NCBI GenBank assembly: GCA_963803145.1
Contig: CAWDLW010000042.1
Location: forward strand, 32,001 to 96,000
DNA from: Methanotrichaceae archaeon
GTDB lineage: Archaea > Halobacteriota > Methanosarcinia > Methanotrichales > Methanotrichaceae
Direction of reading: 5' to 3'
Length of the DNA: 64,000 nt
In this document: positions 2,691 to 55,318 of the stretch, piece by piece
Layout: each line of letters starts with the position of its first letter
Position numbering within the stretch: position 1 is the stretch's first letter
The notes under the pieces: model-generated
The model's database searches: none
What the model was told of the DNA's origin: nothing
Seen by the model: only the letters and a program-made list of their open reading frames with translations
Program-made: the position numbers and the translations under genes

Positions 2691-2785
2691 GATAAGAGGC
2701 AAAACGCCTTGATTAAGGCCGAAGCCTCTATCTGCCTGGAGGTTCATTATTGTCCCTCCTACATCGCCTCCGGGCAGCACAATTT
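2691..2785 (+). ncRNA. Candidate small RNA: two hairpins, the second with a UCCCUCCUACAUC loop
   Basis: Stems GATAAGAGGC/GCCTCTATC and CTGCCTGGAGG(2732-2742)/CCTCCGGGCAG(2767-2777); 13-nt loop motif identical to 4826-4838. Confidence 0.45.
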
Positions 2786-2813
2786 TCACTCTGTATTCGC
2801 GAGTCTCACAGTT

Positions 2814-3368
2814 TCAAGATTCGTCGATTTTTGCTAGACAATAACTGCAATCTTCGCGCATTAAGCATGAACTGCATTTTCTCTTTGAATTATGGTTCCT
2901 TGTGGGATGGCCTCCATTCCAGCACATCCTCATTTCCTCAACAGTTGACAGCAGATCTTTCCTGAGTGCATCATCGAACTTAATCAAGTGCTGTTTTCCA
3001 TCGCCGTATACTAATATCCCGTAGGGAACAGTCTTGCTGTAGGTCTCCTCGATAAGAAGGCAGTAGGCTGCCAGCTGCAGCACATGGCCCCTGTGAGGTT
3101 GCTTCGCGCGTCCGCTTTTTAGCTCCACAGGTATGAGCACATTATCCTTGTCTTTGATTATGTAGTCGGGCTTGCCTGAGATCCCAAATCGCTTGGAGAA
3201 CAGAGGCTTTGCAGGCCTAACCAAGTCTGAGTATATCACCTTTCCATCATGAATACCATATTTTCTTCTAGTAGATTCAATAGCTGAGGACTTCCTTCTG
3301 GCAAAGGCATAAAATATCAGCGCTAAGGCAAATAGCAGCACAATCAAATATAAGATCGTACCAACCAC
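2814..3368 (-). CDS. cas4: Stand-alone Cas4-like PD-(D/E)XK nuclease, C-terminal part, with N-terminal TM helix
   Basis: GKPDY..ELKSG, QLAAY, C-terminal CxxCx5C; hydrophobic N-terminus; lacks the first Fe-S Cys. Confidence 0.8.
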   Translation of the reverse strand: MVGTILYLIVLLFALALIFYAFARRKSSAIESTRRKYGIHDGKVIYSDLVRPAKPLFSKRFGISGKPDYIIKDKDNVLIPVELKSGRAKQPHRGHVLQLAAYCLLIEETYSKTVPYGILVYGDGKQHLIKFDDALRKDLLSTVEEMRMCWNGGHPTRNHNSKRKCSSCLMREDCSYCLAKIDES

Positions 3369-3628
3369 CCGAATGCAGCTAAGGCGCCTATAAGCATCAG
3401 ATATTCCAGAATGCGTACTATCCTAAGAGACCTCTCCTGACTTTGAACCTGCAGTAGCCTCTTACCAGCCTCGATATGCTCGTATCTGCCCCTTTCAAGG
3501 CTGGGGGATTCCGGTATGCCGTCACACCTCTCAAGGTACCAGGCAACTGGACAATAAGCGTATTGCGATATCTCCGATGCTGTAATAACATCTCTTTTTG
3601 TGCCTCTTCTCATTGTGATCCCGCTCAA
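3344..3628 (-). CDS. Cas4 N-terminal fragment with C-terminal TM helix
   Basis: ITASEISQYAYCP..WY..G...H matches the Cas4 N-terminus; hydrophobic tail; overlaps the next gene by 25 nt; alternative ATG at 3613. Confidence 0.7.
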   Translation of the reverse strand: MSGITMRRGTKRDVITASEISQYAYCPVAWYLERCDGIPESPSLERGRYEHIEAGKRLLQVQSQERSLRIVRILEYLMLIGALAAFGWLVRSYI

Positions 3629-3713
3629 AGCGATTAGTATACAATAGCTCGTGGCCTAAAACAGTCTATGATCCGATAAGAGATATTAATGATCTGTTTC
3701 ATCTCCATCTTGA

Positions 3714-4739
3714 ATGTCGGGTTATCAAATGCAAGCCGGATCATTGGGCGTAAAGGTGCAGAGAGGCTGCGGCGAGAGATTTCGCCGCGCTTTGATAGAG
3801 CTTGAGCTTTTTGATCGTAATCGCAGGATTACATCCGATGAAAGCCACATCTATCTTCCAGTCTTACCGCTAAACAAGGATGCACAAAGCACGCTTCTGG
3901 AAATCGGAGACTTCGAGATAATTGAAGCTGACTTTAAGCCTGAAGATCGCATACTGAGCCCGGAGGACATACTGGGATACAAGCCCAGCTTTGAGGTCGT
4001 GGGTGATATCGCCATTGTAGAGGCTGAAAACGCCGAAAAGGCGGAAGAGGTTGCAGATGTGCTGATGTCCCTTTACAAAAGCATAAAGACTGTCATCGCC
4101 CCCATATCTGATGTCGAGGGAGAGTTCAGAACACGCAGGTTCAGGCATGTTGCAGGACAATTAGGTACTACAACCGTTCACAGGGAGCACGGCCTGAGAT
4201 ACTGCATCGATCTTGAGGGTGCTTACTTCAGCCCAAGACTTGGAACTGAGCGGCTCAGAGTCGCACGGCAAATCCATTCAGCCGATATCGTGCTTGACAT
4301 GTTTGCAGGTGTTGGGCCATTTGCTCTTCTTATCGCAAAAAAGGGCGCAAAGGTCATAGCCATCGATAAGAACCCCGTGGCTGTGAGATGCCTTAGAGAG
4401 AATGCTCGATTGAACAAAGTCCAGGCAGAAATCCTTGAAGGCGATGCCGCAGAGCTGGCATCGAGGTATGAGAATACGGCAGATCATGTCATCATGAATC
4501 TTCCCCACAGCGCATCTCGATTTCTGGCACCTGCTATAAAAGCCGTAAAAGCGGCGGGGGGGGTGGTGCATTATTACAGCATAGCATCCGTTGAAGATCT
4601 TTATGCAGATGCGGAGTTGATTAAAAAGGCTACGTCAAGTATTGGCGCTTCTGCGGAGATCTTATATCGAGGCATTGTGAGAAGTTATGCCCCAAGAAAA
4701 TACAATATAGTAATGGATTTCAGACTAATCAAGCCATAA
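3714..4739 (+). CDS. trm5: Trm5/Met-10+ family tRNA methyltransferase
   Basis: YFSPRLGTERLR, DMFAGVGPF, MNLP, VRSYAP. Confidence 0.85.
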   Translation: MSGYQMQAGSLGVKVQRGCGERFRRALIELELFDRNRRITSDESHIYLPVLPLNKDAQSTLLEIGDFEIIEADFKPEDRILSPEDILGYKPSFEVVGDIAIVEAENAEKAEEVADVLMSLYKSIKTVIAPISDVEGEFRTRRFRHVAGQLGTTTVHREHGLRYCIDLEGAYFSPRLGTERLRVARQIHSADIVLDMFAGVGPFALLIAKKGAKVIAIDKNPVAVRCLRENARLNKVQAEILEGDAAELASRYENTADHVIMNLPHSASRFLAPAIKAVKAAGGVVHYYSIASVEDLYADAELIKKATSSIGASAEILYRGIVRSYAPRKYNIVMDFRLIKP

Positions 4740-54562: not shown

Positions 54563-55318
54563 TTAAGCTAAATAGCCACTATTTGTAGGATATGAGTAGC
54601 CTGTTGGTGGGTTATACATCATCGGGCGAGAATATCCAGTGGGTGCATTGCAGGCAGTTGGACAGACATGGCCAGTTATACATCCCTCGCTAGTGGGGCA
54701 GAATCTCCCTGTAAAACAGTTGACACCTGTTGGGCAACAGGTATCTGTCATGCAACCAGCCCCAGTTGGGCAACCGCAGTCTGTTGGACATTTGGAGCCT
54801 GTCACGCAGCAGTTACACGTTGTGCATTTATCGCCTGTTGGACAATTAGCGCCTGTCAAGCACTCTTTGCCTGTCGGACAGCAAGAATCCGTCGCACATT
54901 TCTCACCTGTCGGGCAACAGGAACCTGTCGCACATTTATCGCCTGTTGGACAATTGCAGCCTGTCAAACATTCTTTGCCTGTCGGACAGCAGGAGTCTGT
55001 TGCACATTTACTATCTGTTGGGCAGCATGATCCCGTTGTACAATCAGCACCTGTTGGACAATCAGAGCAGGTCGGACAAGTGGCGCCTGAGGGACATTCG
55101 TAAGATGTGGGCATACATGCGCCGGTTGGATATGCATGGTTCGTATTTGATTCATAGTTTGATGGATATGTTTGTGTTGGATATGTATTACCTATTGGTG
55201 CATCATTCGGATACGCAGAGTACATTTGATCTTGATACCCATAGCCTTCCATTGCGTATACGCCGTTAATTACGATAAACATAATGGCCATTGTTATTAA
55301 AAACAGTTTGGTTTTCAT
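54563..55318 (-). CDS. Secreted Cys/Thr-rich repeat protein
   Basis: Signal peptide; 12-aa repeats CPTGxxCxT(G/D)xx; about 37 Cys by manual count. Confidence 0.8.
   Translation of the reverse strand: MKTKLFLITMAIMFIVINGVYAMEGYGYQDQMYSAYPNDAPIGNTYPTQTYPSNYESNTNHAYPTGACMPTSYECPSGATCPTCSDCPTGADCTTGSCCPTDSKCATDSCCPTGKECLTGCNCPTGDKCATGSCCPTGEKCATDSCCPTGKECLTGANCPTGDKCTTCNCCVTGSKCPTDCGCPTGAGCMTDTCCPTGVNCFTGRFCPTSEGCITGHVCPTACNAPTGYSRPMMYNPPTGYSYPTNSGYLA

Follow-up and report, generated by a model that had tools for sequence, protein, structure and literature searches.

Two overlapping genes of a Methanotrichaceae archaeon as likely subunits of one membrane-anchored solo Cas4-family nuclease

Cas4, Dna2, AddB and EXO5 have been studied as soluble, single-chain iron–sulfur nucleases, and the solved examples of Cas4 include type I-C Cas4 (8D3L), the Cas4–Cas1 fusion (7MI4), Pcal_0546 (4R5Q) and SSO0001 (4IC1). 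In the portions considered of the account by Rentz et al. 2025 (PMC12501428), the M. mazei Solo-Cas4 is described as a single soluble chain that forms a large oligomer and as an Mn/Mg-dependent dsDNA nuclease induced in the stationary phase; solo Cas4 forms can be active nucleases, a point that has no bearing on a membrane form. The subject here is a 64,000-nucleotide stretch of DNA (the window) from a Methanotrichaceae archaeon (assembly GCA_963803145.1, contig CAWDLW010000042.1, positions 32,001 to 96,000), in which one Cas4 domain is spread over two overlapping open reading frames (ORFs) on the minus strand at 2814..3628 and is cut at a membrane hairpin. In all likelihood, the two genes encode two subunits of one membrane-anchored solo Cas4-family nuclease. 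As far as the sequences tell, a real two-piece, membrane-tethered enzyme is very probably involved, because many archaea and some bacteria have retained this split.

By computation, the split is conserved and falls in the turn of an inserted transmembrane (TM) hairpin, both halves are constrained, and they are predicted to fold together. The N-half matches model positions 1-50 of the cas4 profile TIGR00372 (E-value 8.9e-5, 22.4 bits) and the C-half matches positions 57-179 (E-value 4e-24, 85.4 bits); therefore, the two ORFs together make up one Cas4 domain. The profile cut-offs for Cas4 are passed by the C-half alone, which exceeds both the 65 bits demanded by TIGR00372 and the 22.7 bits demanded by PF01930 (E-value 4e-10, 40.4 bits), whereas the N-half stays under the 65-bit mark. 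Searched against PDB sequences, a profile of the C-half matches 8d3l, 4r5q, 7mi4 and 4ic1, and a profile of the N-half finds nothing significant (best E-value 0.31). The locus comprises the following features, with lengths in amino acids (aa) or nucleotides (nt) and hydropathy on the Kyte–Doolittle (KD) scale:

3344..3628, minus strand: N-half gene (ORF-N), 94 aa, with a TTG start at 3628 and a TGA stop at 3344-3346
2814..3368, minus strand: C-half gene (ORF-C), 184 aa from GTG 3368 or 177 aa from TTG 3347
3344..3368, minus strand: ORF overlap of N-half stop and C-half start, 25 nt; GTG 3368 is at the -21 position and TTG 3347 overlaps the stop as TTGA
3551..3580, minus strand: ASEISQYAYC motif ending in Cys26, the first of four presumed [4Fe-4S] ligands
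3476..3478, minus strand: codon of the invariant His51, the presumed metal-binding His of a composite active site
3359..3424, minus strand: TM helix 1, the putative C-terminal tail anchor of the N-half (about residues 69-90), with a hydrophobic 17-mer of mean KD 1.96; it contacts the C-half helix in the complex prediction
3300..3365, minus strand: TM helix 2, the putative N-terminal anchor of the C-half, followed by RRK (KD 2.88)
3117..3167, minus strand: PD-(D/E)XK catalytic residues D68, E82 and K84, invariant
3063..3077, minus strand: QLAAY (QhxxY motif), residues 98-102, with Q and Y invariant
2847..2876, minus strand: C165-x2-C168-x5-C174, three putative C-terminal cluster ligands, invariant, in predicted contact with N-half residues 23-34

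Relative to ORF-N, ORF-C is read in frame +2, that is, -1. An in-frame ATG at 3613 lies five codons past the TTG start of the N-half. The N-half closes with IVRILEYLMLIGALAAFGWLVRSYI at its stop codon, its terminal hydrophobic stretch IVRILEYLMLIGALAAFGWLV being followed by four residues, while the C-half opens with MVGTILYLIVLLFALALIFYAFARRK, in which the hydrophobic start VGTILYLIVLLFALALIFYAFA leads into RRK. Within the C-half, D68 sits in KPDY, and E82 and K84 in ELK. Translational coupling, in which a stop codon overlaps or abuts the downstream start, would be provided in the window by the GTG at -21 and by the TTGA.

The motifs of a Cas4 nuclease are constrained on both sides of the break. 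In 35 N-halves, C26, W30, G47, H51 and G55 are invariant, and A17, S18, E19 and I20 are at least 90% conserved; His51 is presumably equivalent to the metal-ligating His of solved Cas4. Both in 35 C-halves and in a set of 18 sequences, the residues of the nuclease motifs (D, E-x-K and QhxxY, here D68, E82, K84, Q98 and Y102) are invariant, as are the three Cys. The 1 + 3 Cys pattern of a putative [4Fe-4S] cluster is thus distributed over the two polypeptides, the N-half contributing C26 and the C-half C165, C168 and C174. The locus departs from the one soluble chain expected of Cas4, consisting of two ORFs in different frames with a hydrophobic helix on each side of the break. A hydrophobic end borders the break on both sides in 67/67 pairs (66 loci and the window). 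Of the two flanks of each helix, the more positive one adjoins the soluble part: for the N-half this is the flank preceding the helix, as compared with the tail, in 62 of these 67 loci, and for the C-half it is the flank following the helix in all 67. By the positive-inside rule, a positively charged flank marks the cytoplasmic side of a membrane; under this rule, the charge bias would make both soluble parts cytoplasmic and leave the break on the outer side.

Assembly was modelled with a complex predictor supplied with alignments of both halves and a 4Fe-4S cluster. In three runs, the complex of N-half and C-half scored 0.79, as against 0.00 for the best control; for comparison, 58 of the 80 solved complexes and 2 of the 110 mismatched pairs attained this mark. 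At least 94% of contacts are shared between the runs, the predicted local distance difference test (pLDDT) of the partner is at least 75, and the predicted interface holds 164 confident contacts. These include helix–helix contacts between C-half residues 1-30 and N-half residues 64-89, as well as contacts between N-half residues 23-34, which hold Cys26, and C-half residues 157-169, the CxxCx5C region. The Cas4 fold was checked on the fused relative P0077 rather than on the two chains of the window. Its AlphaFold2 model (mean pLDDT 86.9) contains a long helical hairpin formed by helices 40-84 and 88-119, the turn of which corresponds to the break in the window. The nearest solved fold found by Foldseek is type I-C Cas4 (8d3l; E-value 1.8e-8, template modelling score 0.66 on the target), and further matches are to Dna2, Cas4–Cas1 (7mi4 and 7mi5), ACE1, SSO0001 (4ic1) and 4r5q, those of the Dna2/AddB/AdnAB/EXO5 type having E-values of 5e-7 to 3e-3. 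An earlier note on this DNA, prepared from its letters alone, had described one gene with the N-terminal Cas4 motif and a TM end that overlaps another with a TM start, D, ELK, QLAAY and CxxCx5C, and the ORFs and profiles bear this out in every detail. The membrane-tethered heterodimer with a bridging cluster that it proposed is supported by the invariant Cys and catalytic residues of both halves and by the predicted complex, TM helices included.

The split recurs far beyond the window. A search with ORF-C found 430 relatives, and among the 120 of them that were listed, 116 are 137-211 aa long, the size of the C-half alone. Two of the four longer ones, P0077 (266 aa) and P0088 (290 aa), are genuine single chains in which a pair of hydrophobic helices separates the N motif from the C motifs, whereas the extra N-terminal residues of the other two, P0078 and P0080, lack the Cas4 N motif; P0118 (205 aa) is a single chain without a hydrophobic insert. 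From one-genome-per-species contigs, 80 loci were sampled in Methanotrichaceae, Methanofollis, Methanoregula, Ca. Mnemosynella, Thermoplasmatota, Chloroflexota and one Syntrophobacterales bacterium. Two ORFs with the frame offset of the window are present in 66 of the 80; the others were classed as fused (4/80), separated by an in-frame stop between the N-part and the C-part (3/80), offset by +1 (3/80) or without an N-part found upstream (4/80). The earlier note had taken single-ORF orthologues as the outcome that would point to a sequencing error or a pseudogene, and the counts of 66 split and 4 fused loci speak for the opposite.

On inspection, the 14 remaining loci comprised six with another two-gene junction or a disrupted N-half, three with the halves on different contigs, one with the N-half at a contig end and the four fused forms. 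At the junction of L074 and L079 (...GG-TAG-cggcgg-ATG), an ATG follows 6 nt past the TAG in the same frame; the junction of L076 reads TGAgATG, that of L080 has an ATG 8 nt past the N-half stop, and that of L077 has an in-frame TAA. The contig end truncates the N-half of L057, the stop of which is still visible in a window-type junction, and L067 combines a window-type junction with an additional disruption inside the N-half. In this last locus, from an uncultured archaeon, the N-half extends over two frames at about 3700-3950, one carrying ASEI...C and the other the His and the TM tail, which points either to a copy in decay or to a fault of assembly. In the Chloroflexota loci L070, L071 and L078, whole-genome searches located one N-half and one C-half per genome on separate contigs (3/3), and the N-half of the Chloroflexota genome G001 is a lone 94-aa gene with a hydrophobic tail, followed by an unrelated ORF. 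Overall, an N-half ORF lies directly upstream of the C-half in 71 of the 80 loci.

Standalone N-halves are also the prevailing form in a wider search, in which a profile of 35 N-halves had 1230 matches at an E-value of at most 0.001 among 1.84 billion cluster representatives. Among the best 150 of these 1230 matches, 141 are no longer than 140 aa, and 132 of the 141 carry a hydrophobic 17-mer in their last 40 residues. Another eight of the best 150 exceed 200 aa and are single chains with two, about four (P0206) or at least eight (P0258) hydrophobic helices between the motifs. The hairpin of the unsplit relatives is inserted exactly where the split forms break (Cas4 model positions 50-57), the break in the window falling on the turn of this inserted hairpin. 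Split forms reach down to about 40% identity in independent assemblies, their carriers include complete single-contig genomes, and the nearest relatives of the window (L001 and L002) are split. The recurrence of the split, together with the standalone N-halves, therefore indicates a stable and widespread gene arrangement rather than an assembly error or a pseudogene. An unrooted tree, from which L053 and L064 (short) as well as L074 and L079 (masked) were left out, contains at least three changes between fused and split forms, the order of the states not being given by such a tree. Within it, the Methanofollis sisters L038 (split) and L039 (single ORF) are joined with a Shimodaira–Hasegawa-like approximate likelihood ratio test (SH-aLRT) value of 99, and the loop of L039 reads through the region equivalent to the L038 overlap; as the title of the L039 contig gives a coverage of 2.2, this fusion may have arisen through faulty assembly and not by natural re-fusion.

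In the proposed mechanism, two polypeptides are probably made by stop/start coupling, both halves being translated separately from one mRNA. For the C-half, translation would begin with one of two codons, the GTG at -21 or the TTG overlapping the stop of the N-half. The N-half would be tail-anchored and the C-half signal-anchored, with their helices pairing in the membrane and the soluble parts rebuilding one Cas4 fold on the cytoplasmic side. Such a fold would share a [4Fe-4S] cluster, to which the N-half contributes one Cys and the C-half three, and would possess a composite metal site made of the N-half His and the C-half D, E and K, so that each half alone is expected to be nonfunctional. 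The most likely activity would be that of a metal-dependent DNA exo- or endonuclease at the inner membrane face, acting independently of Cas1–Cas2. Its role might be to process or destroy DNA that enters at the membrane, or it might lie in membrane-linked repair; the earlier note had suggested that it could act on membrane-associated DNA in uptake or defence.

Several observations weigh against this two-subunit reading. The nuclease activity, the cluster and the topology of the split Cas4 are all inferred. The complex prediction supports reassembly of the Cas4 fold, yet it may reflect likeness rather than binding, because structures of single-chain Cas4 have been solved. Fused forms exist among the relatives; therefore, a single chain also works. 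The real start codon of the C-half is not fixed, the GTG at -21 and the TTG at the stop both being candidates. A canonical start (ATG, GTG or TTG) occurs at the junction in 58 of the 67 loci with the window's offset (at -21 of the N-half stop in 36/67 and at -12 in 33/67), and the other nine lack any of the three before the C-half helix, so that initiation there must be non-canonical. In addition, 15 Methanothrix-type junctions have TTAA at the stop, and 13 of these read tat-ttt-TAA; on this run of five T, some -1 slip is conceivable.

As to function, a rival reading holds that the protein is a CRISPR-adaptation accessory that trims prespacers for Cas1–Cas2 in trans at the membrane. In favour of this, the protein is a Cas4-family member, its nearest solved structures are those of adaptation Cas4s, and cas1 is frequent where it occurs. 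The genome of the window has two cas1 genes, on contigs C18 and C12 (the window itself is on C42), and 44 of the 50 carriers of the split gene in the window's taxonomic family have cas1. Nevertheless, the split gene never adjoins cas genes (0/80 loci), the window and the flanking regions of all 80 loci being free of cas genes, and its position away from any cas gene agrees with solo-Cas4 in the usage of Hudaiberdiev et al. 2017. Within the window, neither cas1 nor CRISPR-like direct repeats were found, as the earlier note had stated, and in the same genome each cas1 is adjoined by a canonical cas4 of its own. Furthermore, six of the 50 carriers have no cas1 match, two of which (G012 and G085) are 93% complete (the other four, 62-82%), and in one genus cas1 occurs in 13/16 genomes and the split gene in 0/16. 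These considerations make the adaptation role unlikely.

Within this taxonomic family, the split gene is found in 50 of 105 genomes, always as a single copy, in 6 of 16 genera and in 30 of 64 high-quality genomes, while cas1 is found in 88 of 105. Given this distribution and its mismatch with cas1, the split Cas4 gene is accessory, patchy in occurrence and without a tie to CRISPR. In the family, open frames of 550-690 aa, roughly double the size of plain Cas1, contain many of the best Cas1 matches; therefore, fused Cas1 proteins seem to be common there. The window's genome also contains a fourth, weak PF01930 match (G000:C8:139139-139375, L086; E-value 1.2e-5, model positions 81-158) in a 261-aa open frame.

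With regard to the gene product, the earlier note had also considered one chain with a TM hairpin, and programmed -1 ribosomal frameshifting or transcriptional slippage in the 25-nt overlap could yield such a chain as the sole or an additional product. The -1 frame relation is constant in 66/80 loci, natural single-chain hairpin relatives exist (P0077, P0088, L043 and L052), a P-site -1 slip at the stop is conceivable for the 13 tat-ttt-TAA junctions, and the nine loci without a canonical start would be accommodated. On the other hand, overlapping start/stop pairs give a fixed -1 offset anyway, since the overlap locks the offset, and most junctions possess an ordinary start. No X_XXY_YYZ heptamer is present in the overlap of the window, and none is conserved: only 7 of the 67 loci contain one, and its sites, 15-249 nt ahead of the stop, are not homologous. 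The junction sequences vary from clade to clade. A frameshifted gene should keep the same frame relation and adjacency in all members, but five loci have offsets of 0 or +1, with an ordinary ATG or an in-frame stop, and in three genomes the halves are on different contigs; neither arrangement can be served by a -1 shift. Production by frameshifting thus lacks support and is rated as very unlikely, and two separately initiated subunits are the preferred explanation.

A different form of junction was observed in the Thermoplasmatota-type loci (L045-L050, L055-L065, L069 and L073; for example, L047 at about 3810-3835). Their N-half ends in ...GAGGTGAT(n3-4), and its stop is overlapped by ATA, as ATAG or ATAA. 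ATA occurs in this position in 18/67 loci, and in 9 of the 18 no ATG, GTG or TTG precedes the C-half helix, the C frame being open and hydrophobic all the same. From the sequences, this looks like AUA initiation driven by a strong Shine–Dalgarno match embedded in the upstream gene. In L077, a neighbour of these loci, a one-base shift has left an in-frame TAA followed by ATT.

A further rival holds that only the C-half is a working enzyme, the N-half being a dispensable remnant or unrelated. By itself, the C-half exceeds the Cas4 cut-offs, and D, E, K and QhxxY are all located on it; furthermore, according to the parts considered of two reports (PMC13621843, PMC12501428), M. mazei solo-Cas4 is nuclease-active despite mutations of cluster-ligand Cys. 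However, all 35 N-half sequences retain the Cys and the His, 71/80 loci have an N-half ORF directly upstream of the C-half, and N-halves persist when unlinked, exactly one of them accompanying one C-half in each of three genomes; the extensive predicted interface, with its 164 confident contacts, also argues for a partner. An enzyme consisting of the C-half alone is accordingly highly improbable. Last, a pseudogene or assembly error, in which a single base has been deleted from a once intact gene, is hardly credible, for although one added base in the overlap restores a single frame and the genome of the window is a draft in 51 contigs, 66/80 loci from independent assemblies show this very split (down to about 40% identity and including complete single-contig genomes), functional residues are invariant in both halves, and standalone N-halves dominate the family. 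The split state of the nearest relatives, L001 and L002, contradicts this reading as well. A search for sequencing runs that contain this DNA listed ten DNA runs and no RNA run. Contigs from four of the runs match 2700-3750 at 99% or more, with 3276-3347 uncovered and no contig spanning the junction at 3344-3368, so that they carry no information on the junction.

Around the split gene, the window encodes Trm5 (divergent), a GNAT acetyltransferase, a hydrolase, a phosphoesterase, a lipid-synthase-like membrane protein and a P-type ATPase. Of the conservation of split and synteny put forward earlier as a check, only the former holds across clades: clustering of the ORFs from the 80 loci and the window revealed housekeeping genes as neighbours, none of them common to different clades and none a cas or defence gene. 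Trm5 occurs in 34 cases (33 loci and the window), all in Methanotrichaceae and allied loci, and genes for a Pelota-like protein, saccharopine dehydrogenase and ABCE1 occur in Thermoplasmatota. The PADLOC defence library returned Cas4 and DruK-type nuclease models only, with no system context.

In 27 Methanothrix-type and allied loci, a 226-aa gene (e.g. L036:4519-5199) with a hydrophobic N-terminus lies just downstream of the C-half on the same strand. The protein has no Pfam match and no PDB sequence match, and the ESM Atlas groups it with 'thermonuclease family' clusters in which 57-100% of members carry PF00565 SNase (score 0.93); it may be a secreted SNase-like nuclease beside the membrane Cas4. 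Two homologues of this gene are located on other contigs of the window's genome; therefore, the linkage is lineage-specific. In four Anaerolineae loci (L080:1032-1694, L074, L075 and L079), a 220-aa gene lies immediately upstream and overlaps the N-half start. It matches AfTRAX, an archaeal TRAX homologue (3zc1; E-value 1.3e-20), and, weakly, Pfam Translin (E-value 0.014), and to judge from these matches it is a translin/TRAX-like nucleic-acid-binding partner gene. Elsewhere in the window, at 54825-55062, there is a tandem repeat with a period of 36 (5.2 copies, 67% matches) and also of 108 (2.2 copies, 83% matches), the unit of which is rich in CCTGTCGGACA-like words and is not CRISPR-like.

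If the two-subunit reading is correct, two subunits would have to share both the cluster and the active site, in an arrangement that is stable across archaeal and bacterial phyla. The locus would then provide a natural inter-subunit 'iron staple' and a nuclease fixed to the inner membrane face, and the poorly understood solo-Cas4 group would gain a concrete cell-biological setting, namely DNA at the membrane. More speculative, and rather doubtful, is the idea that archaea and some bacteria possess an undescribed, envelope-associated pathway of DNA handling in which the split Cas4 would be the catalytic unit, cutting or resecting DNA that emerges on the cytoplasmic side during viral entry, conjugation or natural uptake. 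The enzyme would then be an innate barrier independent of CRISPR, or else the cytoplasmic processing nuclease that is missing from archaeal DNA uptake, and assembly through helix pairing and a shared Fe–S cluster would be the control point. For annotation, the consequence is that N-halves of about 90 aa fall under curated cut-offs, and C-halves are named 'Cas4' as though complete.

No published description of a two-gene, membrane-anchored Cas4 architecture was found. The literature searches yielded no description of a membrane-bound or split Cas4 or of the unsplit membrane-inserted relatives, of which supplements, e.g. of PMC5704561, may list members. In the part of Hudaiberdiev et al. 2017 (PMC5704561) covered, which excludes its supplements, there is no mention of transmembrane, split or Methanothrix, and 'membrane' appears once, in a gene name; the part of Rentz et al. 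2025 (PMC12501428) covered mentions neither membrane, transmembrane nor split. Searches for 'Cas4-like' with transmembrane, archaea and iron-sulfur returned unrelated phage and virus papers only.

Among known systems, the window form shares with CRISPR-associated Cas4 (PF01930/TIGR00372) the fold, as judged from the fused relative, the D/ExK and QhxxY motifs and the 1 + 3 Cys pattern. It differs in consisting of two genes with a TM helix on each side of the break (model positions 50-57) and in being unlinked to cas1, cas2 or a CRISPR array. With the archaeal solo-Cas4, so far as the consulted parts of PMC5704561 and PMC12501428 describe it, it has in common a Cas4-family gene that lies outside cas loci in a methanogen; unlike the M. 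mazei protein, a single soluble chain, it would comprise two membrane-anchored chains. The Fe–S PD-(D/E)XK domains of Dna2, AddB/AdnAB and EXO5 provide a parallel in their 'iron staple', a cluster that clamps the N- and C-terminal parts of the nuclease, whereas these domains are soluble, unsplit and located within large helicase-nuclease proteins. The closest counterparts are the unsplit membrane-inserted relatives with two (P0077, P0145, P0216, P0195, P0255 and P0266), about four (P0206) or at least eight (P0258) helices. They possess both the N and the C motifs and, as read from their sequences, an insertion at the identical place with an even number of hydrophobic helices, but they are one chain, whereas the window form is cut in the turn of the hairpin.

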